A stretch of DNA of 64,000 bases from Clostridia bacterium (GCA_017472685.1 JAFUOO010000004.1:158903-222902); one strand, 5' to 3'. Counted from the stretch's first letter, positions 6,912-31,768 are shown. The notes: a model not told the origin generated them from the letters alone. A program made the numbers and translations.

Positions 6912-6963
6912 ATTTAATCCTCCGTTATCAAAATGCAGATTTTAAAAAATGTAAAGTCGTAAA

Positions 6964-7152: not shown

Positions 7153-7175
7153 AATAAATACCTCCGTTTTGTTTG

Positions 7176-10069: not shown

Positions 10070-10276
10070 ATTCAACACTCCTTAAAAATTAATTTGACTC
10101 TCCGCCTTACACCGATATAAATATCATACTGTAACGAGTTAAAATTTGGGGAGGGAAAGAAATGAGAGTTTATATGACAATAAGGTTAATGTAAAGGGCA
10201 AAACTTGACTTTATTTGTCATTTTTGAGATAATAGAAGCAAATGCAAAAGCTGTGTCAGAGGGGAGTGGCAAAATT

Positions 10277-12622: not shown

Positions 12623-12625
12623 AAA

Positions 12626-12659
12626 ACATCACGTCTGATAAAAGACGTGATGTTTTTTT
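12626..12659 (+). terminator. Rho-independent terminator after the TIR-STAND gene.
   Basis: Perfect hairpin acatcacgtct-gataaa-agacgtgatgt followed by T7. Confidence 0.65.
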
Positions 12660-12976
12660 GTTGAAAACACTCATCCAAAAATTCAAATATTTATTATCGG
12701 TTATTATGTATATCGAAATAATTGCAAAAGTAAGGTGAAAGCCTGATTCCTCTTGGCAAATGGGTGTAATTATAGAAGTGAGCTGTGCATTTTTATTGAC
12801 CCCAAAAACAGATTAATAAAAATGATGGTAAACTAAAATCAACATGAAGCAGGGGGAATTATATGAAGAAAGTTAAAAACAGAGGCGGGTAGATCTGAGA
12901 AACATTGAGGGAAACATTATAATAAATCAGAAAAATTAAAGGGATTTCTAAAAGTTGTATATAAAAAGGAGATAAT

Positions 12977-13582: not shown

Positions 13583-13827
13583 TGAATAGAAGAAGGGTTT
13601 GCTGTTCACCTTTTTCACAAAGAGTTTTGAATGAATAGCCTTACCCTCCCAAAAAAATATGTTTTTTGTTTATGTATAATATATTTATCGAAGCGCTGTT
13701 AATAATGAGTAGCGTAAATATTGATAGGAGAGGTGAGATAAAAATGATAACATGCATTTTTCGAATAAGAGCATCCCCTTTTAATAATGCCTTTACTAAT
13801 TAAAAAAATATTAATGAGGTGAAACTT

Positions 13828-16779: not shown

Positions 16780-16969
16780 AGTTTGGCGCTGTAGATTTTT
16801 CAGGTCTGCTAAGGGTGATGGAAAGTGAGGGGGAGATTGTAGCATTCCTTTAACCGTATTCTCAAATAAGGAATTTGATTTGTATTGTTTGAGGCAGAAA
16901 GAACTTGATTCAGAAATTTATAAATTAACATCAACAGATGATGAAAATTAATTGTGGGGGATTAATACA

Positions 16970-17683
16970 ATGAAATTAAACGAGTGCGCAGAATTCATTA
17001 AAGCAGAAATTGACAAGGCGACAGCGCTATTGAAATCGGGTAAGCAATTACAGTGTAAAAAAGCATTTGGAATATTACATAATATTGCACAAATAAACAA
17101 GGAGGAGTTTTCGAAAAACACAAAAGCGGTAGTTGATTATGCAGATTGTTTTTATAACGGAAAGGGGGTAGCCCAGAACTTAGAAAAGGCATTTGAATGG
17201 TACGCTATTGCTGCAGAGAAAAATTTTGCTGTAGCCCTGAGGAAACGAGGAATCTGCTATTTTTATGGTAAAGGGTGCGAAAAGAACTACGATTTAGCAA
17301 CAGCAGATTTTACACAGGCAGTGGATGAAGGCGATATTTTAGCAAATTTGTACTTAGCAGTTTGTTTTGATTATGGCATGGGAGTAAAGCAAGACTATGA
17401 AGAAGCCTTGAAATATTATCAGGCTGCAGCGAAGAAGGGATATATAACCGCTAAAAGAAGGTTGGGTGATTATTATTTAAAAGGTATCGCATCAGAGATT
17501 AATGAAGAAAAAGCTATTGAACTGTACCATGAATGCATAGCACATGGCGATCCGGAGGCAATGCTTAGATTGGCAAATTGTTATTATGAAGGGCAAGGGG
17601 TTACTAAAAACAGCATTAAGGGCTCTTGTTATGATTTGCGAGCCTCGGGAGAAAAGAAACTGCCTATGGCTACAAAAATTTAA
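16970..17683 (+). CDS. Sel1-like (TPR-like) repeat protein.
   Basis: Repeated A.EWY..AA..G...A.......Y..G.GV modules. GGGGG RBS precedes the ATG at 16970. The track start at 16952 is TTG. Confidence 0.55.
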   Translation: MKLNECAEFIKAEIDKATALLKSGKQLQCKKAFGILHNIAQINKEEFSKNTKAVVDYADCFYNGKGVAQNLEKAFEWYAIAAEKNFAVALRKRGICYFYGKGCEKNYDLATADFTQAVDEGDILANLYLAVCFDYGMGVKQDYEEALKYYQAAAKKGYITAKRRLGDYYLKGIASEINEEKAIELYHECIAHGDPEAMLRLANCYYEGQGVTKNSIKGSCYDLRASGEKKLPMATKI

Positions 17684-17697
17684 GAATAAAATAATAA

Positions 17698-17735
17698 GAC
17701 TGAGCCTTGACTTAATGTCAAGGCTCAGTTTGTGT
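17698..17735. terminator. Bidirectional terminator between convergent genes.
   Basis: Hairpin gactgagccttgac-ttaat-gtcaaggctcagt. Confidence 0.55.
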
Positions 17736-19970
17736 GTAGATATTTGCTTTTCTTAATAATTCTTGCGGGGTGTACAAAGGAAAGATACCCGTTTCATCTT
17801 CCAAAGAGACTGCAACAATATTTTGAGCCGTGTTGGCATCAAGGTAGCCCTCGACTTTGTATTTGAGAGAAAGTGTTTCAGTGTTAATGAAATATGCAGT
17901 GCTGTCAAGCTTTAGCATTAAAAGATTTTCAGAAGGGAAATATTCATAGCTGACGGAATCGAAGGTTGTGTTTAATTCCAAACTGTCAATGATTGAATAA
18001 TCTGATAAATCTATTTTATGAAGCTTGGCATCGGATGAAAAAACAGTAAGCGTATTTTTATTGTCAACAAACAATAATTTCTGTATTGGAATACTGGAAT
18101 TAAAGTGTTTTACAGGTCTGGTTGTATAAATGTCGTAAATCATCAATTTCGGCATACGGAATGAATCGTTTTGAAGTGAGTTGTAGAAGAGTATACCTGC
18201 ATAGTTGTCTGAAATCCAAATTAAATCAGTATTTTCCTCTTTTTGTTTGGGTAGGGTTAGTGCCATTTGTGATTCATTGGGGTCATAAAACACATATGTA
18301 GTTTCATTTTCCTTGCTATGTTGCATAATTTCTGCAATGATTTTACCGGTAGAAGAAACTTTAAATTTGGTGATATAGGAATCGGGGTTATTCGTGAAAA
18401 ATTCGGGAACCCATTCAATAAATGCGTTGTTGCGGGAATAAATCAATGCGCCCGACTCGGATACGAAGTAAATGTTTTCATTGAAAACAGATGGAATAGA
18501 ATTTGCCTTGCCTTGGTATGAAAAAAGCTCCTTCTTGCCAGGCAAGTCATAGACTGACGTTGCAGTGCTTGACTGCAGGCAAATTTTATTGTCGCTGACA
18601 AAGCAAGCATGGGAAGCATTAGGCAACTCTTTAAAAAATTGGGTGTTTTCCGTAAATGTGTTGTATAGATATGCTTTATCAGAATTGGTGAAAAGAGCGT
18701 ATTCTCCCGATGGACTGAAGGTGAAGTTTGAAATAGGGGAGAATTCAAAGGATAGCGGGATAAAATCCTCGTTGGGAGAGGCGATTGTGTAGACGAAAAC
18801 ATCGACAGACGGAGGTGTTGATACAACATACGTGTTATTGTATTGAGAAGAGAGGGATGTTGTGTCTGCATAGGATGGTGCAGCAAGATAGTCATCTGTA
18901 TCTGCTGAATTGGCGATGATTTCTCCCGTGAAAGCATCTATTGTTTTAATTTCGTGATTTTCTATAAGCAAAAAAATGTGAGCATCTTCAGGGGAAGCAG
19001 CTCCAAATGAAAGTTTGGTATCTTTTGAAGCGGAGAGCTTTGCTACTAAATAACCATCTTTGCGCCAAAGATAAAACGCGTTTTCATCCCTTGTTAAAAT
19101 AGTTTGGCCCATGCAGGTGTGGGTAACGTAGGAAACCGGGTGTTCGTGAGAAAGGGTTGAAATGTGCTTTTTGAATGACGGACTGAAAGCGCCGATTTCC
19201 TCTGAAAGAAGGTGAAGAGCGTTGTCAGGAATTTTATCAGAATCCTTAATTGAGGAAATTTCATCAGTAAGCATTGTGACAGCAGATAAAATGTCGCCCG
19301 AATTATATTTTTTCAATGAGTCTTCAACAACGTTGAGAGTATTTTCTGTTTGAAGATTGTTATCCAGTGAAAAAATATTACCCAATAAACATGCTAAAAC
19401 AATGAAAAGAAACAATGCGGAGATGATTACGGAAAGTGCTCGTTGTTTTCTTCGACGCTTTACGCGGTCATTTAGTTTATTAAATTCGCAATCTAAAAGG
19501 GAAGCTGCTATTCTTAAACATTCATTCTTTATAACTCTCTTTTTTACGGGGAAGGAACACTTTGAAAAATCACAAGCTATCCAATTATTATCATACAATT
19601 CTTTAGGCAGAACTTCTTTTGCATCGCCGCTTATAATACAAGGGACTATGCCTTTGTAGCTGTTATCGAAGTTTCTTTTTTTGTAAAAGTTAATTTCATT
19701 AGAACAGAACTTGGATTTAGGGTAGTTGTCCGAATAGAGAGCAATTAAAAATTCGGATTTTAATATTTTATGATAGATTTCGGTGTTAACTGGTTTTGCT
19801 GCGTTAAAATCGGTTTTATCAAGACAAATCTTCCATTTTTTGAAGTTTTTGGGACGAAGCTTTTTGGGAGGAGTAAAGGTTTCCAAAAAACGTTGAATTT
19901 GTTGAGCTACGCCTTTGTCGTCATCGTGCTTATAGCTGATAAAAGCTTTGTATTCGTAATTTGTGTTCAT
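17718..19970 (-). CDS. TIR-domain protein with one TM helix and a large extracytoplasmic beta-rich (propeller-like) C-terminal region.
   Basis: N-terminal TIR (KAFISYKHDDD ... LIALYS.NY..S.FC..E). TM segment LSVIISALFLFIVLACLLG. About 550 aa of beta-strand-rich repeats. GAGGTG RBS. Confidence 0.6.
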   Translation of the reverse strand: MNTNYEYKAFISYKHDDDKGVAQQIQRFLETFTPPKKLRPKNFKKWKICLDKTDFNAAKPVNTEIYHKILKSEFLIALYSDNYPKSKFCSNEINFYKKRNFDNSYKGIVPCIISGDAKEVLPKELYDNNWIACDFSKCSFPVKKRVIKNECLRIAASLLDCEFNKLNDRVKRRRKQRALSVIISALFLFIVLACLLGNIFSLDNNLQTENTLNVVEDSLKKYNSGDILSAVTMLTDEISSIKDSDKIPDNALHLLSEEIGAFSPSFKKHISTLSHEHPVSYVTHTCMGQTILTRDENAFYLWRKDGYLVAKLSASKDTKLSFGAASPEDAHIFLLIENHEIKTIDAFTGEIIANSADTDDYLAAPSYADTTSLSSQYNNTYVVSTPPSVDVFVYTIASPNEDFIPLSFEFSPISNFTFSPSGEYALFTNSDKAYLYNTFTENTQFFKELPNASHACFVSDNKICLQSSTATSVYDLPGKKELFSYQGKANSIPSVFNENIYFVSESGALIYSRNNAFIEWVPEFFTNNPDSYITKFKVSSTGKIIAEIMQHSKENETTYVFYDPNESQMALTLPKQKEENTDLIWISDNYAGILFYNSLQNDSFRMPKLMIYDIYTTRPVKHFNSSIPIQKLLFVDNKNTLTVFSSDAKLHKIDLSDYSIIDSLELNTTFDSVSYEYFPSENLLMLKLDSTAYFINTETLSLKYKVEGYLDANTAQNIVAVSLEDETGIFPLYTPQELLRKANIYTQTEP

Positions 19971-20767: not shown

Positions 20768-20785
20768 ATTCAAAAGATGTACTAC

Positions 20786-20816
20786 GAAAACACGAAGCGA
20801 TGCGCTTCGTGTTTTC
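20786..20816 (+). terminator. Rho-independent terminator.
   Basis: Hairpin gaaaacacgaagcg-atg-cgcttcgtgttttc. Confidence 0.55.
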
Positions 20817-20899
20817 ATAGTATAAATTATTATTGAAATAAGTGTCGAATTGTGGCACAATATATGTATAAATATTTATAGATTGACGGAGGAATGAAA

Positions 20900-23167
20900 A
20901 TGAGTATAAGTTATACTAAGTTTACCGAAGTAGCAGAAAACAGAATGAAAAGTTTAAAAAACAAATTTAGGTTGCCTCAAGAAGTTGCAATAGAAAGGTT
21001 TAAAAATATAGCGAAAGATAAAGGGAAATCTAATTTTTATGGCGACCTTTACGAGTTAATGAAAGGGTGTGGCTACGGTGAGGTTGATTTTAGAGGGAAA
21101 ACATTTAATGAAGTTAATGAGTTGCTAAAAAAATTAAAGACAAAAGCAGAAACCATTACTATGATATTAGACGAATTATATAACATATATTCAAAACATC
21201 AAAGACAAGGAGAATATATGGAGCGAATCGTTAGAAAATTAGGAGATGAATCGTTCGAAAAAGAAAGCATTAGGGTTGCGATTTTAAAGCAATTTGTTAA
21301 ATATTTGCAGGAAGACATGAAATCCATTCACGATGGTGTATCAAGTGTAATAAGGTACATAAAGCGTGATGATAAAAAATGTAAAACCATTGAAGATGTC
21401 ATAAAGAAAATAGATGAAAGTATTTTTGACAACATAAGCAATAACCATACTGATAAATCATCGGAAGAAAAAGGTTTATCGAATGAGGGGAAAGTTTTTT
21501 TAAAAACAATTGATGATTTGTCAAAGTGTGTTTTCAGAGGTCAAGGTGCTACGCGTGAAGCTATGTATACATTTGCTTTTGCATATGGCTTAACGTATTA
21601 TGAAGATTCTCAAGAAATTGATTATAATAAGTATAGAGATATAGATAAGGTTTTCGTAGATACTTTTAATGATAATTTGTTTAGATATATTGGAGAACAT
21701 CGAAACAGAGAGAATAATGCAATACCTACAGGCGAAATGGTAAATTTTAAAAATTTTGCAGAAGTTATATGCATATACTATTTATCAAAAAAAGATGAAG
21801 AAATCAGTCGTTATCAAAGATACGTCGGAGCTATGGATTGTATTGAAAAATGCAAACAGAACTCTATCGGCATAAAAAGTGAAGGTCGTACAACGGAAAT
21901 ATTTAGACTTAATTATTTTGAAAATGTTGCAAAAATAAATAATGATGACGATCTGGTTGATTATATTATACATAACTACTATGTGCCGGAAAAAATTAAG
22001 CACAGTGGGTTTAAAACGGTAGCGATAGATACAAAATTAATAGAAACTGTAACAGGAGAAGCGGTGAATGAAACTGCGAGAGTGGCTATTGTGAACAAAT
22101 TTATTGAAAATAAATTTGTTGGAGACGGATCTGTTACCGGAGTGACAACCTTTTTGAAAAAGGCAAAGGGCTTGGGAATTAGTGATATAACTGATGAGAG
22201 CCTTAATGAATATTGGGAATCAAAAATGATTAATCCAAAAAAAGATAGAAAGCTAATTGGAATCGCAAATCACTTAATTGAAGGATTATTTGACAATGAA
22301 AGTATAGCTCGTGAAAGCTTATTCAAGTTTGCATTTGTTTTTGATATGAAGCTCTATGAAGACGAAACAGAAACAGGTTACGATAAAAATAGAGACATTG
22401 AGAAGCTGCTACTCATTCCTTTTTTAGGAGAGGGCATAAATTATGAAAAGAAATTAGATACTGTTTGTGCTTACTACCTGCGCAAAGATGGAATTGAACC
22501 CGAGGGGAAGACGAAAACTGTAATTGGGGAAAAAATGAAAAGAGTGAAAGCAGCTCTTGAAATGAAAGGAAATGGAGAAGGAAAAATTGTTAGCGGGGAC
22601 AAAAAAAACTATTTCTGGAATTGTGCTGTGAATATGGAAGAAGAAGCTTTTCAAAAATATGTTGCAGAAAATTTTGAAGATGAAAAAGAAAGTAATAACT
22701 TTAACGATTTCTACACGGAGTCCAATCAAATTACTGCATTTAACATATATAAGTCAATTGTTAGCGAAATACAAAAAATGACAAGTGAAGATGAAATGGA
22801 TATCACCTTAGAAATGCAGGACGATGTAGAAATTATCATAGATGAATTTAATAAGACAAAATATTCAAAAGATGACAATTTCATGAAACTATTGCTTGCG
22901 TTGATAAAAATGGTGACTCCTGACAAAAACGTTAATTATAAAAACATGACCAGAAGTAAACTGATTTCATTAGAGTATTATAAAATGAAACGTGATCTTG
23001 ACAATACAGCAAATTTTGAGCAAACGTATGATGAAATTTTAGATTATATCAACATGGACTTGATAGATGCGAGGTATAATCCTCTCGATACAAGAAGTAT
23101 GTATGATTTGTTCGTTGTTTTTCTTGTTTACATACAAGTTGTGTTAATGAACGCCCCCAAAAATTAA
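20900..23167 (+). CDS. Large hypothetical protein of about 755 aa, Lys/Glu-rich, no recognisable domain. First gene of the kinase cassette.
   Basis: Long uninterrupted ORF with a GGAGG RBS. Co-directional and tightly spaced with the downstream genes. Confidence 0.5.
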   Translation: MSISYTKFTEVAENRMKSLKNKFRLPQEVAIERFKNIAKDKGKSNFYGDLYELMKGCGYGEVDFRGKTFNEVNELLKKLKTKAETITMILDELYNIYSKHQRQGEYMERIVRKLGDESFEKESIRVAILKQFVKYLQEDMKSIHDGVSSVIRYIKRDDKKCKTIEDVIKKIDESIFDNISNNHTDKSSEEKGLSNEGKVFLKTIDDLSKCVFRGQGATREAMYTFAFAYGLTYYEDSQEIDYNKYRDIDKVFVDTFNDNLFRYIGEHRNRENNAIPTGEMVNFKNFAEVICIYYLSKKDEEISRYQRYVGAMDCIEKCKQNSIGIKSEGRTTEIFRLNYFENVAKINNDDDLVDYIIHNYYVPEKIKHSGFKTVAIDTKLIETVTGEAVNETARVAIVNKFIENKFVGDGSVTGVTTFLKKAKGLGISDITDESLNEYWESKMINPKKDRKLIGIANHLIEGLFDNESIARESLFKFAFVFDMKLYEDETETGYDKNRDIEKLLLIPFLGEGINYEKKLDTVCAYYLRKDGIEPEGKTKTVIGEKMKRVKAALEMKGNGEGKIVSGDKKNYFWNCAVNMEEEAFQKYVAENFEDEKESNNFNDFYTESNQITAFNIYKSIVSEIQKMTSEDEMDITLEMQDDVEIIIDEFNKTKYSKDDNFMKLLLALIKMVTPDKNVNYKNMTRSKLISLEYYKMKRDLDNTANFEQTYDEILDYINMDLIDARYNPLDTRSMYDLFVVFLVYIQVVLMNAPKN

Positions 23168-23214
23168 AAAGGTATCCTCCTGTATAATGAATATGAAAAT
23201 TATACAGGAGGCAT

Positions 23215-23868
23215 TTGATGCGAATAAAAAAATTTACTAAGGTCGGAAATTACAATAGTTTGAGAGGGGTAGAAAATCAGGATTATATTTGCGTAAAGGA
23301 AAACAAAAGATTTCTTGTCGTGGCACTGGCAGACGGTGCAACAAGCTGTGTTAAAGGTGCAGCTGGCGCAAGAATAGCATGTGAAGCAGCTTCTGGGATG
23401 TTAATAAAAAGCGATAAGTGGTTTGATTTTGAGAAGGAAAAAGTGGCATACTTAATTCTTGAAGAGGTTTTGTTTCAAACAAAAAAAGAAGCGGATAAGA
23501 ATAATGAGCCATTAGAAGCTTATGCAAGCACGCTGGTAATAACTCTTTTTGATAAAAAGAAAAACAGATTACTTGTTTTTAATTTAGGTGATGGTGCAGT
23601 ATTTCTATCATTTCAAAACGACATAAAATATAATCCGGTTGTTTCACCGAAAAGATTCGAAGGGCAACCGTCGCTGATTACTTGCCTGGATTCTTATAAA
23701 GATGCGCAAGTAGTTGTATTAAATGAATTCGACGGGAAAATATTTATGTGCAGTGATGGTGTATATGAAATTCTCTTCAAAAAAGGTATTACTATAGCTG
23801 AGTTTATAAAAGAACCTGAGAAATGGGATCTTGAAGATGACGGCAGTTTTTTATTTTACGAAACATAG
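23215..23868 (+). CDS. PP2C-like (PPM-fold) phosphatase-domain protein, degenerate.
   Basis: PPM-like motifs: ALADGATS..GAAGARIA, STLVITLFD, NLGDGAVF, CSDGVYE. Lies 18 nt upstream of the kinase gene. Confidence 0.5.
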   Translation: MMRIKKFTKVGNYNSLRGVENQDYICVKENKRFLVVALADGATSCVKGAAGARIACEAASGMLIKSDKWFDFEKEKVAYLILEEVLFQTKKEADKNNEPLEAYASTLVITLFDKKKNRLLVFNLGDGAVFLSFQNDIKYNPVVSPKRFEGQPSLITCLDSYKDAQVVVLNEFDGKIFMCSDGVYEILFKKGITIAEFIKEPEKWDLEDDGSFLFYET

Positions 23869-23885
23869 ATAATGAGGTGTTATAT

Positions 23886-26800
23886 ATGAGACAGGTTTTG
23901 TCAACCAATTGCATTATAAATTTAAGGCATGTGTTGTCCGGAGGAACGGAAAAGTTTAAAATAAAATCCGTGGTAGGAAAAGGTGGCGCCTGTATTTGCT
24001 ATAGGGTAATTCGTGGAAACAGAGAAGGATTGTTAAAAGAGTTTTACCCTGAGGATGTGGGAATAACTCAAAATTATAACATGTTGGAGAGAGACAAAAA
24101 ACACCAGTTAATAGCAGTTGAAGAAGCGTTTGCAGAACGCTTTTCGATTATGAGACAAGAATTTATTGACGGCTATAACTTGTTGGAAAAAGCAAAAAAG
24201 GGTAAGAGAGCGAAGGCTCTGGCAAATTATATTCCCAAGTATGAGATATTTGAAGGGCTGCCTGAAAATTCAACTGTGTATATATGGATGGAAGAGACCG
24301 TGGGAGTGAATTTTGAACAATACTTACAGTGGGTATGGAAAAATGCTGAGGTAAATAGCGCTCTAAAGGTTCATAATATTTTATGCACCATAAACACTAT
24401 CGCTACAGGTGTGTGCGGAATGCACATAAACGGATTGAATCATAGAGACATAAAGCCAGAAAATTTTCTGGTTGAAAAAGATGCAGTGGAAGAACTTAAT
24501 CCTTACCATGTGTGTATGTTTGATATTAACAGTTTCACTTATGGTTCATCGGCAAAATACATTGTGGGCACAAAAGGTTATATGGCACCTGAAGTTGCTT
24601 TTGGTAAGGCCCGTTACTATAGTGACATATATTCTCTAGGTGCGATGTTATTCCATGCTGTAATTGGTGAAAACGCGCTTTATAACGATGAGCAATATGA
24701 TGTAATTGAGCGTTTGGTTTCAGAATCAAAACTAATATCTAAAATTAAAGATGTATATTTAGAAACATACATCACGGAAATTTTGAAAAAGAGTTTAAAA
24801 AAAGAACACACAAAACGATACAAGCAGACAGAAGATTTTATAAGAGATATAAAAAAGGCCATTGCCCGTCTTTTGCCATACACTGAATCGGGAAAGCTTG
24901 GTCCGGGTAAGAGATTGAAAATTGTGGAACAAAACAGACCGATTGACAGTATTCCTGTGTTTCAGGATTTGCTTTATAAAAAGCCTGTATATGAGTATTA
25001 CGATAACAATAATAATGAAATTAACGTTGCTGTTGTCGGTGGCGGCGTTTATGCACAGGCTTTTATGGATGTTGTATTGCAAACTTTACAAATTAAGGGA
25101 AAAACGCTTAATGTTTATGTGTATTCAAAAGATGCCAATTTTGATAAAGGCATTTATTTGAAAGCACGACCTGATATAGGCAGATTTTTTGATATTGATG
25201 ATAAGAATGTGAGCGATGACTCGTATGGAAGAATACGCTTTATAGAAAAAACTTTTAGCGAAAAACACACTGAGTTCCCGGAAATTATTAAAGCAGAGCC
25301 GAGCTATGTTTTTGTTTCTTTGGGCGGCGACAAAGTGAATAAAGCTGTGGCGAAAGCACTTGCAAACAAATTTTCGGAAGAAAACAAAAACGCTTTAATT
25401 AATTTTGTTTGGACAGGGGAGGAAATTAGAGTAAAAAACAATAAATTAAATCCCGTTTATGTCAGTCAAAGAGTAAAATATTCTGATATAGATGCAAACC
25501 TTGCCAACATGGCATTTAATACCCATCTTGTTTGGAACGATTCTTTCTCGAAAGATTATGGTGAGTTATACAAAGAGTTCAGAGAGTCTTATAACTATAA
25601 GTCATCCATCGCATATGCATTATCAATTCCATACAAATTACACTCAATGGGTTTAACAGATGAAAAAGGAAATTATGATATTGAGTGCATTAATTCCATG
25701 TTAAGTGATGAAAAAGTATTGAGAGAACTTTCGTGCTACGAACATAGACGTTGGGTCACCGAAATGATTTGCAAAGGATGGACAGCGCCGGTTGATGCTA
25801 ATGGCAGAGTTGAAACGAAATTGTGCCTTGAATTTTTATCAAATAAAAATAAAAAAGATAAAATACATCTCTGTATTGCAAAAGGAAGTACAAGCAGTTG
25901 TCCTGACGAGAAGGAATGGGATGAATTTAAAGGTAAATTGGATGATTTGGATCGCGTGAGCATAGAGCTTTATGGACATTATAATAAAGAGGCTAAGAAG
26001 TTCAAAGCAAAATATTTAAGCGGAGAATTTACTGCGTTGAAAACATTGAAGCAGAGTTTATCAGGCGTTTCGGAATTTTCAAAATTGTTGGCAGAATATG
26101 AGTTTTCGATAGACGCCATTGTGAAAAATTGCAGTAAAATGCACGCGTTGAAATTTGAATCATTACATTCAAGAATTGTTGAAAAAATAGAAAAATCTTC
26201 GAAAATAGTAAAACCTGATGCTGTTTTAAAAGAACTTAATTCTGTATTAGAAAGCATTAACCCTTCAGTGTACAGTATAAAAAGGACTAATTATAAACGA
26301 ATTGATGATGACCTTGTGAAACGTATTCCGTTTATAATTACAAATCGCCCAAGACCGCAAATAACTATGGTATTTAATGATGGGCGATATGGAAACTATG
26401 CGAATGAAGAAGTTTTAAAAAATGTAGCATCTGCTGTTGCCATAGTGCCAAAGCACATTACGTATTTATATTATTGCAACAACTTAACAAACATTAAAAA
26501 GCTCGCTTCTGCAATTAAAGGGGTTTTGAATTTCTTTGATAAAAAAAGCATGGCAAACACAATTGATTTTGTCTTTGCATGTAATAGCAGTTTTAATGCA
26601 GAACTGAAGAGTAAAATGGAAGTTTTGAAAAAAGAGTATGCAAGAATCAAAAACATTTACTACCACGAGTACATAAGCGAAAAAGCTGCTGTTTTACTTT
26701 TTGCAAATAAGTATTGCAATGATATTATAGAGGGGACAAGTTTGCCCTTTGATACAGCGGTTAGTAACGGGTATTTCACAGAACAGATGCGCCAAAAGCA

Positions 26801-27956
26801 TTATTTTGAATTTAATTCATATAACAAGAGCTTTGGGTATATAGCAGGTTGTGAATATTTGAAGTATATAGATGTATCTAAAGTTGGCATCAATGTTGAA
26901 GATTTATTTGTTTTAAAGCAGGTTGACTATCAAGCAGCAGTTTCGGATATGTTTACATTTTACGAGCCTTTGTGGAAAACATATACAACTAACGGCGTTG
27001 GAAAAGATGATAAGCTTTGGTCATATTCTGTTAGCAACTGGAATGCATTGTCAGAAAAGCTTAAAAAGTGTGCAGAAATAAACGATGCTGTAATGACATT
27101 TGAGGCAAAAAATGAGGAGAAAACAAAAATAACTCTTACAAAAATATTGCCTATGGAATGCAGTGAAACGGTTCGCAACATTGTAAATGACATGAAAAAA
27201 CACGGATTTATACATAATGGTAAGATAATAGCGTGTAATTCCGATAGTGTTAAGCTCTCTGTTTCTTTTGACAAAGTGTATGAAGAAAAAATAAATAAGT
27301 TGTTTTCAAAATATAGCGAACTTAAAAATAAGTTGTTTGTAGAATCTTTTTATGAATATAATACAAAGAAGCTGAAAATCACTAAAAGAAATTTATTCGT
27401 CGAAAATTTGCAGTTATCAAGGTATGAATACAGGTGTCTGGAATGTTTGTCAAATGAAAAACTAATTAATGATTTAATAGTCATTAACCAAGACGAAAAA
27501 AATACGACTGTGAGTTTTGCATATCCGTCATACAGTATAAAAAACATTCTGGAAAAGGCGGGTAATATCCTTGAACTACATATATATTATCAGTTGTTGA
27601 AACATGGTGATTTTGATGATGTTGAAACAAATGTTGTGGCACAGGGAGACGGGTTCAAAAATGAATTTGATGTTATAATTACAAAAGGATTTAAAACAAT
27701 TTTGATAGAATGTAAAGCAGTAAAGTCGTTAGAGCAGGATTTCTATTTTAAATTAAGCAGCCTTGCAAAGCATTATGGGGTTAATAATATACCCGTGATT
27801 ATATCTACAGAACATGGTGAAGCAAAAGTTTTTGATGTAGTTAATCAAGAAAATGAGGCTCGAGGCGAGGTAATGGGAGTTGTTACGATTTCAACGCGCG
27901 AAGATGTGATCAATATAAATGATGCTATCGTAAAAATTTTTAAGGAAGGTGTTTAA
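23886..27956 (+). CDS. Giant multidomain protein: N-terminal Hanks-type Ser/Thr protein kinase, central Rossmann-like and RyR-like segments, C-terminal PD-(D/E)xK nuclease-like domain.
   Basis: Kinase Gly-loop VGKGGACICY, catalytic loop HRDIKPENF, activation loop GTKGYMAPE. GxGxxA motif VAVVGGGVYAQA. RyR-like segment YEHRRWVTEMICKGW. C-terminal E...FDVIIT...ECK restriction-endonuclease-like motif. GAGGTG RBS precedes the ATG at 23886. Confidence 0.7.
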   Translation: MRQVLSTNCIINLRHVLSGGTEKFKIKSVVGKGGACICYRVIRGNREGLLKEFYPEDVGITQNYNMLERDKKHQLIAVEEAFAERFSIMRQEFIDGYNLLEKAKKGKRAKALANYIPKYEIFEGLPENSTVYIWMEETVGVNFEQYLQWVWKNAEVNSALKVHNILCTINTIATGVCGMHINGLNHRDIKPENFLVEKDAVEELNPYHVCMFDINSFTYGSSAKYIVGTKGYMAPEVAFGKARYYSDIYSLGAMLFHAVIGENALYNDEQYDVIERLVSESKLISKIKDVYLETYITEILKKSLKKEHTKRYKQTEDFIRDIKKAIARLLPYTESGKLGPGKRLKIVEQNRPIDSIPVFQDLLYKKPVYEYYDNNNNEINVAVVGGGVYAQAFMDVVLQTLQIKGKTLNVYVYSKDANFDKGIYLKARPDIGRFFDIDDKNVSDDSYGRIRFIEKTFSEKHTEFPEIIKAEPSYVFVSLGGDKVNKAVAKALANKFSEENKNALINFVWTGEEIRVKNNKLNPVYVSQRVKYSDIDANLANMAFNTHLVWNDSFSKDYGELYKEFRESYNYKSSIAYALSIPYKLHSMGLTDEKGNYDIECINSMLSDEKVLRELSCYEHRRWVTEMICKGWTAPVDANGRVETKLCLEFLSNKNKKDKIHLCIAKGSTSSCPDEKEWDEFKGKLDDLDRVSIELYGHYNKEAKKFKAKYLSGEFTALKTLKQSLSGVSEFSKLLAEYEFSIDAIVKNCSKMHALKFESLHSRIVEKIEKSSKIVKPDAVLKELNSVLESINPSVYSIKRTNYKRIDDDLVKRIPFIITNRPRPQITMVFNDGRYGNYANEEVLKNVASAVAIVPKHITYLYYCNNLTNIKKLASAIKGVLNFFDKKSMANTIDFVFACNSSFNAELKSKMEVLKKEYARIKNIYYHEYISEKAAVLLFANKYCNDIIEGTSLPFDTAVSNGYFTEQMRQKHYFEFNSYNKSFGYIAGCEYLKYIDVSKVGINVEDLFVLKQVDYQAAVSDMFTFYEPLWKTYTTNGVGKDDKLWSYSVSNWNALSEKLKKCAEINDAVMTFEAKNEEKTKITLTKILPMECSETVRNIVNDMKKHGFIHNGKIIACNSDSVKLSVSFDKVYEEKINKLFSKYSELKNKLFVESFYEYNTKKLKITKRNLFVENLQLSRYEYRCLECLSNEKLINDLIVINQDEKNTTVSFAYPSYSIKNILEKAGNILELHIYYQLLKHGDFDDVETNVVAQGDGFKNEFDVIITKGFKTILIECKAVKSLEQDFYFKLSSLAKHYGVNNIPVIISTEHGEAKVFDVVNQENEARGEVMGVVTISTREDVININDAIVKIFKEGV

Positions 27957-27958
27957 AT

Positions 27959-28240
27959 ATGTACGAACCAAAACCAATTGATACAAGTGATATTATTTTA
28001 TCTGATGAATTATTGGCGTTAACTGAGAAACTTGCTGAAAACACACATGACGTGTGGGCTGTGGGCAGAATAAGCCAGGGATGGAAATATGGGGAAAAGC
28101 GTGATGATTTAAAGAAGGAAACTCCGTGTTTGGTGCCCTATGTAGAACTTCCGGAAAGTGAAAAAGAGTATGACAGAAATACAGCACTGGAGACGCTGAA
28201 GTTAATAGTTAAGTTGGGGTATAGTATAGAAAAAATATAA
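27959..28240 (+). CDS. RyR (ryanodine-receptor-type) domain protein.
   Basis: LAENTHDVWAVGRISQGWKYGEKRDD..K..PCLVPYVELPESEKEYDR matches the bacterial RyR-domain consensus. The start is 2 nt after the kinase stop. Confidence 0.6.
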   Translation: MYEPKPIDTSDIILSDELLALTEKLAENTHDVWAVGRISQGWKYGEKRDDLKKETPCLVPYVELPESEKEYDRNTALETLKLIVKLGYSIEKI

Positions 28241-28396
28241 TATATAGGTGCTATTTGAGGGGTCTTCTTGCGGCAGAAAACTGTTTGATAAGGAAACCCC
28301 TCAAATTAAAAATCATATTATTGCGAATATTGGGAGATGGCTTATTTATATGTTGAGCAACATATAAATAGCAAAGTTTAAATGTGGGGAATGTGT

Positions 28397-30079
28397 ATGG
28401 AAAGCCGTGTAAAAATAAAAACAAGGAATAATTCAGAACATAAAGATAAGAACAGGGTATATTTTGCTTGCCATCCAGATGATTTCGAAATAAGCTTTGA
28501 TAAAATTACTGATAAAATTCTTGAAAAGCAAAATTGCGCAATATACTATGGTATAACTGATAAAGCTATGAAAGAAGATGAATCTATAGCTGTTTTATTA
28601 CAGATGCAACTGATTGTTATACCGATAACTGAAAAATTTTTGCGCGAAGATAATGGTGCCTATAATATTGTGTTTAAGATAGCGATTGAAAACCATATTC
28701 CCGTTTTGCCGATTATGCAGGAAGAGGATATAGGGGACTTATTTAATGAGAAATGTGGAAAACTCCACTACCTCAAAGAAACAACCGAAACTACGGAGAT
28801 AAGTTATGATGAAAAAATAGAGAGTTTTTTGAATTCTGTATTAGTCAACGACGAGATAGTAGAAAAGATACGTGATGCATTTGCAGCATATATTTTTTTA
28901 AGCTATAGAAAAAAAGACAGAAAATATGCACAAGAATTAATGAGACTTATACATAAGAATGATTTCTGTCGTGATATTGCGATTTGGTATGATGAGTTTT
29001 TGACGCCCGGTGAGAATTTCAACGATTCTATAAAAGAAGCTATTAAAAAAAGCGGATTGTTTGTACTTGCGGTAACACCGAATTTGATAAATGAAACAAA
29101 CTATGTAATGACAACGGAATACCCTATGGCAAAGAGAGAAGGAAAGCTTATACTTCCTACAGAACTTGTTCCGACAGACAGGAAGGCACTCGCTAAAAAG
29201 TATAGTGATATTCCAACACCTATAGATATAAATAATGATATCGAATTTTCAGATGCTCTTCTTGATTCTGTTAAGAAAATAGAAATTAAGAAAAATGTTA
29301 TCACGCCGGAACACAACTTCTTCATTGGACTTGCGTACCTGGATGGAATTGATATGGAAATTGATCATGCACGTGCTCTTGCACTTATAACCAGTGCTGC
29401 AGAAGAGCAACTTGTGGAGGCAATGAAAAAATTGATATCAATGTATAAAAGAGGAAAAGGTGTTTGCGTAGATTATATCATAGCACTAAACTGGCAATAT
29501 CGTTTGGTAAATATACTGCTTCAAAAATTTAACGCTGAAAAAACGGTAGCTGCTTTTTCGGAATATTTCCATGAATTGTTTAATTATGTCGGAGATTTGT
29601 ACAACGAACGAGGAGATGGACCATATGAGTTAGGTGCATCCAAAGTGCTTGAAGATTGCATCTTATATATTGATGGGCTTCAAAGGGAGAGACATAAAGA
29701 ACTTCAAGAAAAATTCAACAAGGATGATGTATTAAGAGAATGCTTGCGTGATGATGAAATGATGAATGTGTTAATAGAAACAAGACAAAAACTGCGTTTT
29801 GTGGCAGAAAGATTCTTGCCAAAAACATGTGATCTTTACAGGGAATTGATTTATGACAAAAATCAGGACAAAACGCCTTCCCAAGCTGTTATCAGGTGTT
29901 GGCTATCATATTTTTCTGAGTACGCAGGAGATATTGAGGTTGCCATGCAATATAGAAAAGAAGCAGAAAACATTATAGGGGATTACGCATCAAAGGATAC
30001 TGGAGATGTCAATGAGCTATGTAAAAAATGTGGTATAGGTATATGTAGTATGAAAAAAATCATTGACAGCTTTCGTTAG
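28397..30079 (+). CDS. TIR-domain protein with an N-terminal domain of unknown function and a C-terminal Sel1/TPR-like helical region.
   Basis: Internal TIR (AYIFLSYRKKDRKYAQEL ... WYDE ... LFVLAVTPN...S.YV..E). N-terminal VYFACHPDD region of unknown function. Terminator follows. Confidence 0.55.
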   Translation: MESRVKIKTRNNSEHKDKNRVYFACHPDDFEISFDKITDKILEKQNCAIYYGITDKAMKEDESIAVLLQMQLIVIPITEKFLREDNGAYNIVFKIAIENHIPVLPIMQEEDIGDLFNEKCGKLHYLKETTETTEISYDEKIESFLNSVLVNDEIVEKIRDAFAAYIFLSYRKKDRKYAQELMRLIHKNDFCRDIAIWYDEFLTPGENFNDSIKEAIKKSGLFVLAVTPNLINETNYVMTTEYPMAKREGKLILPTELVPTDRKALAKKYSDIPTPIDINNDIEFSDALLDSVKKIEIKKNVITPEHNFFIGLAYLDGIDMEIDHARALALITSAAEEQLVEAMKKLISMYKRGKGVCVDYIIALNWQYRLVNILLQKFNAEKTVAAFSEYFHELFNYVGDLYNERGDGPYELGASKVLEDCILYIDGLQRERHKELQEKFNKDDVLRECLRDDEMMNVLIETRQKLRFVAERFLPKTCDLYRELIYDKNQDKTPSQAVIRCWLSYFSEYAGDIEVAMQYRKEAENIIGDYASKDTGDVNELCKKCGIGICSMKKIIDSFR

Positions 30080-30093
30080 TGTGTTTAAAGACA

Positions 30094-30128
30094 AACAGCC
30101 TTCGGTTTAACCGAAGGCTGTTTTTTTG
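30094..30128 (+). terminator. Rho-independent terminator closing the kinase-RyR-TIR cassette.
   Basis: Hairpin aacagccttcgg-tttaa-ccgaaggctgtt followed by T7. Confidence 0.65.
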
Positions 30129-30589: not shown

Positions 30590-30763
30590 AAATATACCTC
30601 TCCAAAAACACATAAATAAAATTCGTAGTAGAATCAACATAACATAAAGAGAGGACGTGATGCTAATGAGGACGATGTTTAAAAGCAGGGGTAGTTTTAA
30701 GAGTTTAAATTCACAAAGTTGTGTGTAAGAAAAAGCATGTGTAAAACAGAAAGGAAAATAATT

Positions 30764-31768
30764 ATGAAAAAATTAGTAGCAACTATCATGACAATGGTAA
30801 TGGTGGCATCAATGATTCTTAGCGTTAATGTTTCTGCGGCAACAAGTTATCCTTCGCTGTCGAAGACTAATTATTGTGAATTTGTGGCAAATAAAGACAT
30901 AAAGGTATACAATTCCAGACTCTGTGACACAAGAGGAACGATCGTTCCTGCCAAGAATTACAATGCATTGGTGGAAAAGGGTGACATATGTTACATTCAT
31001 TCGTTCGGAAAGACCAGTATTGTATTGGAATATCCTGTAGGTAATGGGACAAGAATCGGATACATAAAGACCAGGGATCTGTTGGGCGCTAATATAACCC
31101 CTGAAAGTTCATTTAAAGCAACAAGCAAGGTAACTACTTATAAGTATAAAAATGGTTCTAAAACCGGCTACTATGAATCAGGAGACACAGTATATGTGCT
31201 TAATGGTGCTAGCTATAACATAATTTATTCAGCTCCATCCAAAAATAGAGGGTACAAATTAGCCTACGTTGATACCGCAACAAAGAAGAATTCTACCGAA
31301 GAAACATTGACAAATGCATTATATAAAATTAATATTTCTGGGTCAAAAATAACGTGCGGCTTTGATGGATATGTTAACACATCGGGGCGTCATGAGGGAA
31401 TAGATTTCGCTTATGGCATAGGCAAAAATGTATATTCTTTAACAGATGGAACTGTAACTAATGTGGTTAAGGGATATAATGGTTCCGGTGGATTGTCTAC
31501 AATCGCAATTTATGACTCTGAAAATGATAAGACTGTAATATATCTGCATGCAGCTCCGTCAAACCTTCAGATTGGTCAAAAGATTGAGCAAGGGGACAAG
31601 ATAGCAACGGAGGCATGGAGGGGATGTTCTTCCGATAAAGGTGCGCATACACATGTGGAAGTTAGAAATGGTAGAAAGACTCATGCTGCAAAGAGCGTAG
31701 GGGACTATACGCTTGATAATAAAAATCCTAAAACCTATTGGAACAGTTTAGGGTATAGCGTTAAGTAA
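30764..31768 (+). CDS. Secreted SH3-like plus M23-like peptidase. Inverted paralog of 7778-8746.
   Basis: Signal peptide. Shares long blocks with the first copy (ASYPSLSKxNYCEF, EKGDICYI, YPVGN, GYIxTxDLLGxNIxPxSSF, KVTTYKY, RGYKLA). M23-like C-terminus (HEGIDF ... HTHVEV). Confidence 0.7.
   Translation: MKKLVATIMTMVMVASMILSVNVSAATSYPSLSKTNYCEFVANKDIKVYNSRLCDTRGTIVPAKNYNALVEKGDICYIHSFGKTSIVLEYPVGNGTRIGYIKTRDLLGANITPESSFKATSKVTTYKYKNGSKTGYYESGDTVYVLNGASYNIIYSAPSKNRGYKLAYVDTATKKNSTEETLTNALYKINISGSKITCGFDGYVNTSGRHEGIDFAYGIGKNVYSLTDGTVTNVVKGYNGSGGLSTIAIYDSENDKTVIYLHAAPSNLQIGQKIEQGDKIATEAWRGCSSDKGAHTHVEVRNGRKTHAAKSVGDYTLDNKNPKTYWNSLGYSVK

Follow-up and report, generated by a model that had tools for sequence, protein, structure and literature searches.

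The stretch of Clostridia bacterium DNA analysed here (the window, 64,000 nucleotides) holds a cassette of five open reading frames, called A to E below, which all lie on the plus strand between two strong hairpins and encode proteins of 757, 217, 1359, 93 and 565 residues. ORF calling thus bears out the five co-directional genes of a first-pass annotation. The gaps given there (48, 18, 2 and 157 nt) differ from the measured 47, 8, 2 and 141 nt in a way that fits alternative start codons; the B-C gap, for example, becomes 17 nt when counted from the ATG at 23886, where public gene calls start gene C with 1356 residues. That annotation had also placed the genes between two clean rho-independent terminators, which holds for the downstream one only. 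At 30093..30128 (plus strand) a 14-bp GC-rich stem with a 3-nt loop (hairpin 30093-30121, dG -22.9 kcal/mol, z -7.1) is followed by U7, and this is therefore a canonical intrinsic terminator. The upstream boundary hairpin (20780..20822, plus strand) is strong (dG -25.6 kcal/mol, z -8.0, 0 of 200 shuffles as good), but it lacks a clean U-tract on the plus strand, has UUUUC inside its stem and stands just 3' of a SprT-like ORF. The missing U-tract and this position suggest that it probably terminates the SprT-like gene or works in both directions. A consensus terminator scan called the upstream hairpin on the minus strand only and missed the downstream terminator. A promoter-like site (20833..20861, plus strand; TTGAAA, 17 nt, CACAAT, with an extended -10 TG), a pattern match from a consensus scan only, lies 33 nt 5' of gene A.

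The cassette sits in an island that is AT-rich, as had been noticed in the first reading, and rich in TIR genes: between about 5 kb and 37.8 kb of the window the GC content is 0.30-0.38, against 0.40-0.50 on either side. The island adjoins tRNA-Thr and tRNA-Lys genes and holds five TIR proteins, a TIR-NB-ARC-TPR protein (10205-12622) and a JAB protein. For comparison, a census of 52 loci was assembled, almost all from gut or rumen Clostridia; 47 of them are informative for gene A and the phosphatase, 42 for the small RyR gene and 41 for a downstream TIR gene. The family of the gene C protein as a whole comprises at least 360 clusters at E <= 1e-30.

Gene A (20894..23167, plus strand) encodes an orphan all-alpha protein of 757 residues with an internally repeated module. 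The proteins upstream of the giant gene C in all loci form one family, in which the repeat number is variable and the length runs from 548 to 1134 residues, and A stands directly 5' of the giant in 45 of the 47 informative loci, as an invariant partner. Neither the gene A protein nor 33 members of its family found a match in Pfam, PADLOC or NCBIfam. The AF2 model (pLDDT 59.8) is helical throughout and confident for residues 13-180 only, and the PDB gave no fold match (E > 4). We propose that A is a sensor or a scaffold; since no fold is recognisable, the sensor role is a guess. Gene B (23215..23868, plus strand) encodes a PP2C-type Ser/Thr phosphatase of 217 residues (PP2C_2, 8e-23), in agreement with the earlier call, and its metal-binding Asp motifs (D23, D40-G41, G125-D126, D181-G182 and D208-D209) are at least 90% conserved in 30 orthologues. 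It lies between A and the giant in 29 of 47 loci, and its divergence parallels that of the giant (66%, 38-44% and 28% identity). It is proposed to be the antagonist that resets the giant's kinase.

The giant itself (gene C, 23877..27956, plus strand, 1359 residues) carries, in this order, a Hanks kinase, a KTN/RCK Rossmann domain, diverged RyR-like repeats and a complete Can2/Card1-like unit of a CARF-like domain and a PD-(D/E)xK nuclease. The first reading had recognised the complete kinase, which stands, together with a C-terminal restriction-endonuclease-like motif; the motif is there too, as one part of a fuller architecture. The kinase (residues 25-335, 23949..24881, plus strand; Pkinase 1e-19) keeps its catalytic residues in 45 to 47 of 47 giants: K54 in 45, H189, D191 and N196 in all, and D216 and P238 in 46, so that by its residues it is catalytically intact. 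Behind it lies a KTN/RCK (TrkA-N)-like nucleotide-binding Rossmann domain with a GxGxxG motif (residues 359-530, 24951..25466, plus strand). The C-terminal third begins with a CARF-like alpha/beta domain with inserted alpha+beta modules (residues 828-1215, 26358..27521, plus strand), the N-terminal part of the Can2/Card1-like unit, and ends in a Card1/Can2-type nuclease (residues 1219-1359, 27531..27953, plus strand; E1233, D1265, E1278-x-K1280). This region matches Card1_endonuc at 5e-4, which is under the Pfam cut-off, and the PADLOC model CARF_PDDEXK at 2e-12, and its family profile matches the Can2 structure 8bao at 1.8e-4. The AF2 model of residues 341-1359 has a pLDDT of 84 and a pTM of 0.75.

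Residues 535-715 (25479..26021, plus strand) form two diverged helical repeats (AFNTHLVW; EHRRW...H664...LDDLDRVS), which we infer to be RyR-like from several matches short of the usual threshold. The small RyR protein aligns with the middle of the giant at E 4e-5 and 70% probability in hhalign, the giant of locus L002 matches RyR at 5e-4 in blastp, and many giants give weak RyR-HMM matches at two in-register sites, with i-E <= 0.01 in only 1 of 47. The motifs are nearly invariant: H550 is kept in 45 and W553 in 46 of the 47 giants; E622, R625, W626, H664, D689 and S695 are kept in all 47, H623 in 46 and D692 in 43, so that repeat 2 keeps H623, W626, H664 and D692 in 43-47. The nuclease has the least conserved catalytic set (E1233 in 37, D1265 in 41, E1278 in 37 and K1280 in 34). 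Giants that lack the kinase and giants that lack the nuclease both exist; the non-kinase core swaps effectors. The RyR-like repeats are proposed to be the ligand sensor.

Gene D (27959..28240, plus strand) encodes a single RyR (R12-type) repeat protein of 93 residues, and here the domain call of the first-pass annotation is firm (Pfam RyR, 2e-37). Its family profile matches animal RyR repeats and the bacterial structure 3nrt at 3e-41. The small RyR protein is far better conserved between loci than the giants (56-90% versus 26-43% identity), and it is adjacent or fused to the giant in 18 of 42 loci; in L008 the giant ends in a fused RyR domain where others have the nuclease. A 2026 preprint (PMC13232231) reports that phage RyR domains of the RyDEP family bind or cleave TIR-made 2'/3'cADPR through H75, W78, H100 and D117. 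By spacing, H30, W33 and D72 of the small RyR proteins, invariant in 20 of 20, correspond to H75, W78 and D117, and the H100 equivalent is Thr55 in most members. We propose that gene D encodes either a binder or hydrolase of an ADPR-derived signal, and so a brake, or a partner of the giant's RyR-like domain.

Gene E (28382..30079, plus strand) encodes a tandem-TIR protein of 565 residues (TIR_2, 1e-9; PADLOC ThsB and SAVED_TIR, about 1e-4). A local TIR HMM and alignment place Lys at the catalytic position of domain 1 (residues ~25-150), and domain 2 (residues ~165-300) keeps Glu246; a role as signal generator or NADase is proposed. The protein had been labelled TIR/Sel1, of which the TIR part survives; the C-terminus is helical, and its one Sel1-like repeat stays under the Pfam threshold (E 0.023, 15.7 bits against a cut-off of 30.7). 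The catalytic residues of the kinase, the PP2C, the PD-(D/E)xK nuclease and TIR domain 2 are intact. The spacer between D and E (28253..28372, plus strand) contains two hairpins (28253-28306 and 28340-28372) and a promoter-like site (28285-28313), and its fold (28241-28381) has a dG of -38.9 and a z of -4.1; these features suggest that gene E is expressed on its own or under attenuation.

About 50 independent loci show the same gene order, so that the neighbourhood is conserved across genomes and not a chance one. The five genes first described are not five equal members, though: A and the giant are the invariant core, the PP2C and the small RyR gene are frequent accessories, and the TIR gene is a variable add-on. 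A TIR gene is found within 3 kb downstream in 8 of 41 loci and anywhere nearby in 18 of 52. In L001, the closest relative (giant 79% identical), the fifth slot holds a non-homologous TPR protein; with the hairpins and promoter-like site of the spacer, this is why gene E may be functionally independent. The full five-gene order recurs in L046, where the RyR-TIR gap is 2 nt, and RyR is directly followed by or fused to TIR in seven loci (the window, L004, L008, L011 as a fusion, L016, L042 and L046). The co-occurrence of RyR and TIR has p = 0.004, a significance that is lost when short contigs are left out (p = 0.19). The operon occurs in about 47 of 185,579 species genomes; horizontal transfer reaches a spirochaete and a Negativicute, and searches of 72,556 plasmids, 50,697 phages and 2.9 million viral contigs did not find it.

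The operon is real and recurrent, and it is apparently undescribed. No described system with this gene set was found in PADLOC, in NCBIfam (systems or equivalogs) or in the literature searched, as the first reading had already suspected. We favour, at a probability of about one half, the reading that it is a candidate anti-phage (abortive-infection) operon, conserved in gut and rumen Firmicutes, in which nucleotide signals and phosphorylation gate a kinase/nuclease effector; a defence role is most likely, judging from context and domains. The giant would be the signal-integrating effector. Infection would be detected by the fast-evolving A and, where present, by TIR-repeat proteins, optional signal generators that may convert NAD+ to an ADPR-derived messenger. 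The messenger, probably of the ADPR type, would be read by the RyR-like/KTN module and possibly by the CARF-like module; its binding would switch on the kinase and the nuclease, and the infected cell would be arrested or killed. The PP2C may undo (auto)phosphorylation and the small RyR protein may sponge or hydrolyse the messenger, and between them the two would define the threshold and return the system to rest, a part that ring nucleases play for Can2/Card1. Phosphorylation gating, which was proposed at first, is probably only half of the logic: gating by a nucleotide second messenger is indicated by the RyR, KTN and CARF modules and by the link between RyR and TIR. Since most operons lack an evident synthase for the messenger, the input cannot be a TIR signal in all of them.

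Several observations sit uneasily with the favoured reading: the TIR gene in a minority of operons, the lost significance of the RyR-TIR co-occurrence, the signs of an independent gene E, and the Thr that most small RyR proteins have at the position of the phosphate-binding His100. In a second explanation, tentative but a serious one, A, the PP2C, the giant and the small RyR would form a four-gene, kinase-centred unit that works like Stk2 or PD-T4-6. Here A would sense a phage protein and activate the kinase, with the nuclease as a second effector; E would be an independent single-gene defence that happens to lie alongside, as do the four other TIR genes of the island, and the RyR, KTN and CARF modules would respond to the cell's own nucleotides (NAD(H), ATP, ADPR) or serve as adaptors between proteins. 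The low TIR counts, the TPR protein in L001 and the long, structured D-E gap all agree with it, as do the best PADLOC match of the kinase (PD-T4-6, 1e-24) and the fact that slot-5 TIR proteins of different loci have only the TIR domain in common (25-38% identity). However, the seven independent loci with TIR directly after or fused to RyR far exceed what the background frequency of TIR genes would give, the L011 fusion ties the two together in Rosetta-stone fashion, the slot in L018 (Fusibacter paucivorans DSM 12116) holds a TIR-like protein (DUF4062-NACHT-TPR), and RyR domains have been tied experimentally to TIR-made cADPR (PMC13232231).

A non-immune role is improbable, whether in housekeeping or development as a Ser/Thr phosphorylation module (cell envelope, sporulation) or in a genomic island as a selfish cassette for addiction or for conflict between bacteria. 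An FtsW/transpeptidase/PP2C/kinase cluster does stand beside the operon in the Ruminococcus-type loci L004, L007, L013 and L014, a T4SS coupling protein adjoins L006 and L010, and RHS/Hint-like toxins adjoin L003 and L045. The FtsW adjacency fits synteny rather than function, since it occurs only in related taxa and its orientation is flipped between L004 and L007, and the very patchy spread, the AT-rich island with TIR, NB-ARC and JAB neighbours, the conserved DNA/RNA nuclease, the TIR linkage, and the absence from plasmid, phage and viral sequences all speak against such a role. Equally hard to credit is a giant that acts in trans for a cyclic-oligonucleotide pathway encoded at another site of the genome (type III CRISPR Cas10 or a CBASS CD-NTase), as an ancillary effector whose CARF-like domain binds cA4 or cA3, as in Can2, Card1 and Cdn1, with the kinase, PP2C and RyR as add-on regulators. 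Among the annotated neighbours of eight metagenomic loci and in the window's island there is no Cas10, cas gene or CD-NTase, and of all catalytic sets that of the nuclease is conserved least, in contrast to the almost invariant RyR-like motifs.

Several known systems resemble parts of the operon. The giant's C-terminal third is like the CARF-PD-(D/E)xK proteins Can2, Card1, Cdn1 and VC1899 (DUF1887), ancillary effectors of type III CRISPR, but the identity is only 10-15%, the unit sits behind a kinase, a KTN domain and RyR-like repeats and has extra inserted alpha+beta modules, and no CRISPR or Cas10 is found near the cassette. With PD-T4-6, Stk2, Mad6 of MADS and PglW of BREX type 2 the giant shares a Hanks kinase with intact catalytic residues. 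The likeness is limited to this domain (PADLOC 1e-24 for PD-T4-6, 4e-18 for mad6 and 4e-11 for PglW), the NCBIfam scores are far under the equivalog cut-offs (MAD6 59 versus 460, PglW 34 versus 990), those kinases lack KTN, RyR and Can2-like modules, and the cassette has no partner genes of MADS or BREX. The TerY-P triad (TerY vWA, PP2C and Ser/Thr kinase) and related conflict modules (Kaur et al. 2020, PMC7159879) likewise pair a kinase with a PP2C in a conflict-system context; the cassette, however, has no vWA/TerY, its kinase forms one protein with sensor and nuclease modules, and its gene A bears no relation. The slot-5 proteins (E, that of L018), in which a TIR or TIR-like domain is coupled to repeat or STAND sensor modules, with the TIR-NB-ARC-TPR protein of the island of like build, recall Avs-like TIR-STAND/TPR sensors and the DUF4062 'Swarozyc' TIR-like NADases, which as far as known act alone, whereas slot-5 proteins are operonically appended to RyR and the giant.

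Thoeris, which pairs the TIR signal synthase ThsB with the effector ThsA, has the same logic as is proposed here: in the cassette a TIR protein with an intact catalytic Glu stands beside an effector with a type of domain (RyR/R12) that binds TIR-made 2'/3'cADPR in experiments (PMC13232231). ThsB models match gene E weakly (PADLOC, about 1e-4), but ThsA is absent (no SIR2-SLOG, Macro or TM effector), the RyR-like/KTN module would be the receptor, a kinase and a nuclease take the place of the effector, only a minority of operons have TIR, and A and the PP2C are extra. The small RyR protein is in turn a PF02026 repeat (2e-37) with ligand positions kept, like the RyDEP anti-Thoeris glycosidases and sponges (PMC13232231). 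RyDEP is phage-encoded and the small RyR is host-encoded, in a putative defence operon, with Thr at the position of the phosphate-binding His100 in the majority of members; it would act as a regulator or receptor rather than in counter-defence, and the operon would make RyR domains part of the host's own side in TIR immune signalling.

All five genes of the cassette were found as open reading frames on the plus strand, co-directional as the first-pass annotation had it: gene A (20894-23167; 757 aa), gene B (23215-23868; 217 aa), the giant gene C (23877-27956; 1359 aa), gene D (27959-28240; 93 aa) and gene E (28382-30079; 565 aa). The intergenic gaps from A-B through to D-E are 47, 8, 2 and 141 nt, slightly off the values first proposed owing to alternative start codons; in public gene calls, gene C starts at the ATG at 23886. 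The cassette was also said to lie between two clean terminators. Both hairpins were confirmed, and each folds far more stably than shuffled sequence does (dG -25.6, z -8.0 upstream; dG -22.9, z -7.1 downstream), but only the downstream one, with U7 trailing it, has the textbook form of an intrinsic terminator, while the upstream one comes after a SprT-like ORF and has no clean U-tract. The source is a ruminant-gut Clostridia MAG, and the product of gene A matches 'hypothetical protein IJ435_01365' at 100% identity.

The giant is the center of the cassette, and a structure was predicted for the part of it that follows the kinase. The AF2 model of aa 341-1359, a check suggested together with a Foldseek search in the first-pass annotation, is confident (pLDDT 84, pTM 0.75), and its top twelve Foldseek matches are all Can2, Card1, Cdn1 or VC1899, with E values from 1e-10 to 2e-6. 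The restriction-endonuclease-like motif noticed earlier at the C-terminus is therefore only the nuclease half of a complete CARF plus PD-(D/E)xK unit: the nuclease is there, at aa 1219-1359, and the N-terminal CARF Rossmann-like domain characteristic of the Can2/Card1 fold precedes it. The Card1_endonuc match is sub-threshold; the nuclease call is backed by PADLOC CARF_PDDEXK (2e-12), and the profile of the nuclease family matches Can2 8bao at 1.8e-4. The catalytic set E...D...ExK is complete in the window giant, and its residues are kept in 37 (E1233), 41 (D1265), 37 (E1278) and 34 (K1280) of 47 giants.

At the other end of the protein, the proposal of a complete Hanks kinase stands (Pfam Pkinase, 1e-19), with the catalytic Lys, HxD, N, DFG-Asp and APE all in place as K54, H189-R-D191, N196, D216 and A237-P-E239. 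These residues are kept in 42-47 of the 47 giants (K54 in 45; H189, D191 and N196 in all 47; D216 in 46), the exceptions being Ala237 (31/47) and the Arg of the HRD motif. At this latter position, aa 190, Arg is found in 23/47 giants and Leu in 21/47, so non-RD kinases make up about half of the family. Kinases of this kind often work without activation-loop phosphorylation, and in eukaryotes they are tied to innate-immune receptor kinases.

Between the KTN Rossmann module and the CARF module lie helical repeats with the motifs AFNTHLVW and EHRRW...H...LDxLDRxS. The RyR HMM is individually insignificant in 46/47 giants when run on single sequences. The repeats match the RyR profile in hhalign (E 4e-5, probability 70%), many weak RyR-HMM matches fall in the same register at two sites across the giants, and one blastp match (5e-4) supports the likeness. 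In repeat 2, E622, R625, W626, H664, C666, D689 and S695 are present in all 47 giants, H623 in 46 and D692 in 43. Given the profile-profile match, the register shared by the weak matches and the invariance of the motif residues, this stretch of the giant probably consists of tandem, diverged RyR-like repeats; profile searches of the giant's middle parts (A5, A6) against the PDB gave nothing usable. The residue conservation across the 47 giants thus places the tightest selection on the kinase and the RyR-like module. A 604-aa protein in one relative's locus (L024, 3039-4853) has N-terminal transmembrane helices, a Rossmann domain (GxGxxG) and a C-terminal RyR match (Pfam 4e-4), and is encoded 5 kb upstream of an operon of A, PP2C and giant; the KTN plus RyR pairing therefore also occurs as a membrane protein.

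Is the cassette a unit? Relatives of the giant were taken from metagenome assemblies and one-genome-per-species contigs, about 51-52 loci in all, and scored with locally built HMMs, the denominators being loci with enough flanking sequence. A word-index protein search had badly under-sampled both families (12 giants, 8 A proteins), which was corrected by the genome scan and an exhaustive HMMER search. The co-location of partner genes, raised as a check in the first-pass annotation, is clear for part of the set: A lies directly upstream of the giant in 45/47 loci, the PP2C gene between the two in 29/47, and a small RyR gene directly downstream, or fused, in 18/42 (somewhere in the locus in 23). 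A TIR gene within 3 kb downstream on the same strand is found in 8/41 loci, and anywhere within about 10 kb in 18/52. One relative, L046, repeats the full five-gene order with an RyR-TIR gap of 2 nt. The hosts in the one-genome-per-species scan are nearly all gut or rumen Clostridia, with one Sphaerochaetaceae and one Selenomonadales MAG. None of the plasmid, phage and IMG/VR collections searched held a relative of the giant, and carriage by mobile elements or phages was rejected for these collections.

The upstream "unknowns" of all loci form one family of 548-1134 aa, in which the number of internal repeats varies. Neither gene A nor 33 family members had a match in Pfam, PADLOC or NCBIfam. 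Predicting the fold of the 757-aa protein, as had been proposed, was only partly informative: the model is all-helical, with a pLDDT of 60 and confidence limited to aa 13-180, and Foldseek returned no fold match for it. Mean column identity within the family is only 13%, a divergence that would be typical of a fast-evolving sensor. By its conserved position, gene A is the giant's obligate partner; it is also the likeliest candidate for the infection sensor or scaffold, and the work defines an orphan family without detectable fold relatives. Gene B is the PP2C-like phosphatase it was thought to be (Pfam PP2C_2, 8e-23); all the PP2C metal-binding Asp motifs are kept, D23, D40, D126, D181 and D208/D209 being at least 90% conserved in 30 members, and the PP2Cs diverge in parallel with the giants.

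The giants themselves vary in composition. When the part outside the kinase served as query, the exhaustive HMMER search gave 360 clusters at E <= 1e-30, among them members of about 1,000 aa that lack the kinase and others of about 900-950 aa that lack the nuclease. In L008 the giant (2696-5647) has 980 aa and ends in a fused RyR repeat where the nuclease would otherwise be, and in L042 it is kinase-less (9953-12559), with an RyR and TIR gene pair 8 kb upstream. Since kinase-less, nuclease-less and RyR-fused variants all exist, the KTN-RyR-like-CARF core looks like a platform with swappable effectors. In a Catonella MAG (L041, 7366-14208), gene A is broken up into three ORFs and the giant gene into two, and RyR and TIR genes come further downstream; this cassette looks pseudogenised. 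In four Ruminococcus-type loci (L004, L007, L013 and L014), the operon adjoins a cell-division cluster of FtsW, transpeptidase, PP2C and Ser-Thr-kinase genes, co-directional with it in L004 and divergent in L007. This adjacency is probably synteny within related taxa, and a functional link of the operon to envelope signalling is possible.

Gene D is an RyR-domain protein, as proposed, consisting of a single full-length PF02026 repeat (Pfam RyR 2e-37, covering 1-91/91). Its relatives include the RyR repeats of animals and the 'putative ryanodine receptor' structures from Bacteroides, and its profile matches the RyR repeats and the bacterial 3nrt in the PDB at 3e-41. The small RyR proteins are 56-90% identical across loci (mean column identity 73%), against 26-43% for their giants. 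The TIR assignment of gene E also holds (TIR_2, 1e-9), while the Sel1 part comes down to a single sub-threshold repeat; PADLOC ThsB models match gene E only at about 1e-4. There are two TIR domains in the protein, the first with a Lys at the catalytic position and the second keeping Glu246, which falls in the alignment where other TIRs have their catalytic Glu.

The RyR and TIR genes are linked in several ways. A TIR gene follows the RyR gene directly in the window and in L004, L016, L042 and L046. In L011, a 262-aa protein (6984-7772) directly after the giant is a small-RyR repeat, about 70% identical to that of the window, fused to a TIR domain; this fusion is a Rosetta-stone link between the two. 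In L008 the RyR-fused giant is followed by a TIR protein. These seven cases among 23 RyR-bearing loci are not chance, since TIR genes are rare in a genome. A locus-level Fisher test gave p = 0.004 before the filtering of short contigs and p = 0.19 after it; as this result is not robust to contig truncation, the case rests on the direct adjacency and the fusions.

A biochemical reason to connect the two comes from phages. A May 2026 preprint (PMC13232231) reported that RyDEP, a phage RyR-domain protein, hydrolyses the TIR/Thoeris messengers 2'cADPR and 3'cADPR, that 6/8 further phage homologues bind these signals, and that two of the homologues are nanomolar sponges. The ligand residues of RyDEP, H75, W78, H100 and D117, are also conserved in animal RyR R12 domains (PMC13232231). 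When mapped by motif and spacing rather than by structural superposition, H30, W33 and D72 of the small RyR are invariant in 20/20 proteins, with Thr55 at the H100 equivalent in most, and all four residues have counterparts in repeat 2 of the giant (H623, W626, H664 and D692, kept in 43-47/47). The genomic linkage, by adjacency in five loci and fusions in L011 and L008, is independent of the preprint. Stand-alone small RyR genes, 58-62% identical over their full length to that of the window, were also seen on two human-faecal contigs labelled 'UNVERIFIED: Bacteriophage sp.' (L091, MT837259.1, 11061-11354; L092, MT836850.1, 7046-7348). These contigs carry no A, giant, PP2C or TIR genes and no phage structural genes, their PHROG matches being limited to helicase, primase and glycosyltransferases, and they were not counted as evidence; if they are viral, their small RyRs would be candidates for mimicry of the host's regulator.

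From these observations a mechanism can be proposed in which the giant would act as a signal-integrating effector that has two outputs, kinase and nuclease, and as many as three modules for sensing nucleotides (KTN, RyR-like and CARF-like). The appended TIR-repeat proteins would probably make an ADPR-derived messenger to be read by the RyR-like/KTN module. Free RyR protein would soak up or degrade the messenger, in much the way that ring nucleases deal with cA4, and the PP2C would undo the kinase's (auto)phosphorylation. In the end the infected cell would stop growing or die. As most operons are without a nearby TIR gene, the A plus giant core must also work without TIR; it may then sense changes in NAD(H), ADPR or ATP, or be activated purely via A. 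The most far-reaching form of the proposal, in which host bacteria use RyR (R12) domains both to receive and to switch off the signal of a new Thoeris-like pathway, with an ADPR-derived messenger from TIR or TIR-like sensor proteins read by the giant's KTN-RyR-like module and unleashing its kinase and Can2-like nuclease while free RyR and PP2C damp the response, is a tentative one, to which we give a probability of about 0.3.

The main rival is that gene E is a neighbouring, independent TIR defence gene. It is favored by the structured 141-nt spacer between D and E (28241-28381), which holds two strong hairpins (28253-28306 and 28340-28372; dG -38.9, z -4.1) and, at 28285-28313, a promoter-like site; only 10 nt separate the end of the second hairpin from the TIR start codon, so this hairpin could mask the TIR ribosome-binding site. 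The content of slot 5, the position of gene E, is also variable: in the cultured Fusibacter paucivorans DSM 12116 (L018) it is a DUF4062-NACHT-TPR protein, and in the closest relative (L001) a non-homologous TPR protein with a weak N-terminal DUF4062 match (E 0.026). DUF4062 is a TIR-like NADase according to a 2026 preprint. The 2-nt RyR-TIR gap of L046 and the RyR-TIR fusion of L011 stand on the other side. Two other readings are less likely. One is that the giant is a trans-acting cOA effector; neither the annotated neighbourhoods of 8 loci nor the island of the window contain cas genes. The other is that the cassette serves housekeeping or addiction.

The AT-rich island reported around the cassette is a stretch of about 33 kb with a GC content of 0.30-0.38 against 0.40-0.50 in the flanks, and it begins directly after tRNA-Thr and tRNA-Lys. 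Its immunity-type content is likewise evident in four TIR proteins besides gene E: a TIR plus MORN protein (4875-5642), a TIR-NB-ARC-TPR protein (10205-12622) with two copies also in L001, a weak TIR (12977-13582), and a 750-aa TIR protein on the minus strand with a faint beta-propeller-like C-terminus (17718-19970). The TIR density of 4875-19970 is unusually high. The same stretch encodes a calcineurin-like phosphoesterase (5898-6575) and a stand-alone Sel1 protein (16952-17683). On the minus strand, a Prok-JAB deubiquitinase-like protein (7176-7610), an M23 peptidase (7778-8851) and an AAA ATPase (9056-10078; PADLOC DolB 1e-9, IetA 4e-6) may form a separate defence module. Cell-wall hydrolase-type domains are found amid the defence genes, in this M23 peptidase, in a second one at 30719-31768, and in a 986-aa surface-type protein from mid-island (13819-16779) with a CHAP amidase, Listeria-Bacteroides repeats, Big_2 and two cohesin domains.

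A system of this kind would unite in one multi-gene immune system three regulatory layers hitherto known only apart from one another: Ser/Thr phosphorylation paired with its own phosphatase, TIR signalling through NAD+-derived molecules, and a CARF nuclease of the CRISPR type. It would also give a first host-side context for RyR/R12 domains, whose sole demonstrated activity in the prokaryote world is that of phage proteins which bind or cleave cADPR signals (May 2026 preprint, PMC13232231), and make the role of bacterial RyR domains directly testable, with a cultured carrier, F. paucivorans DSM 12116, at hand. If the tentative receptor and off-switch reading is true, the phage RyDEP sponges and glycosidases would be stolen or mimicked copies of a host regulator, and the R12 domain of the animal ryanodine receptor would gain a prokaryotic immune-signalling ancestry.

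It is worth comparing the cassette with the systems it resembles. The C-terminal unit of the giant shares the fold and catalytic residues of Can2/Card1, but the association of these with type III CRISPR-Cas (Cas10) is absent here, which by the 8 annotated loci and the window island places a Can2/Card1 module outside CRISPR. The small RyR shares the PF02026 sequence criteria of RyDEP and R12; here it is encoded in a bacterial chromosomal operon with a kinase and a PP2C, unlike the phage-encoded counter-defence role of RyDEP, and the giant is absent from the phage and viral collections searched. Thoeris was rejected for want of its ThsA effector, as there is no SIR2, SLOG or Macro domain in the cassette or island. 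For BREX type 2 (PglW) and MADS (Mad6), the matches are confined to the kinase domain, the NCBIfam scores are far below the cut-offs (34 bits against 990, and 59 against 460), and the partner genes (PglX/PglZ, the MADS methyltransferase, etc.) are absent, so both were rejected, the former in agreement with the first-pass annotation. The kinase domain does match PD-T4-6 models at 1e-24 (PADLOC); however, PD-T4-6 and Stk2 are stand-alone kinases of about 300-550 aa that suffice for defence, whereas the giant has 1359 aa, four further modules and a 2-5 gene operon, so the mismatch with single-gene Stk2-type systems was rightly called. The TerY-P triad (TerY vWA, PP2C and kinase) was rejected because the cassette has no vWA protein, and the vWA genes of L004 and L008 lie outside the operon. 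A literature search found no description of a kinase, CARF/Can2, PP2C and RyR system, nor of TrkA with RyR; the earlier view that the gene set matches no described system is upheld. We classify the cassette as a candidate abortive-infection system under nucleotide-signal and phosphorylation control, made of known domain types in an undescribed architecture, with an orphan partner and a putative host-side role for RyR.
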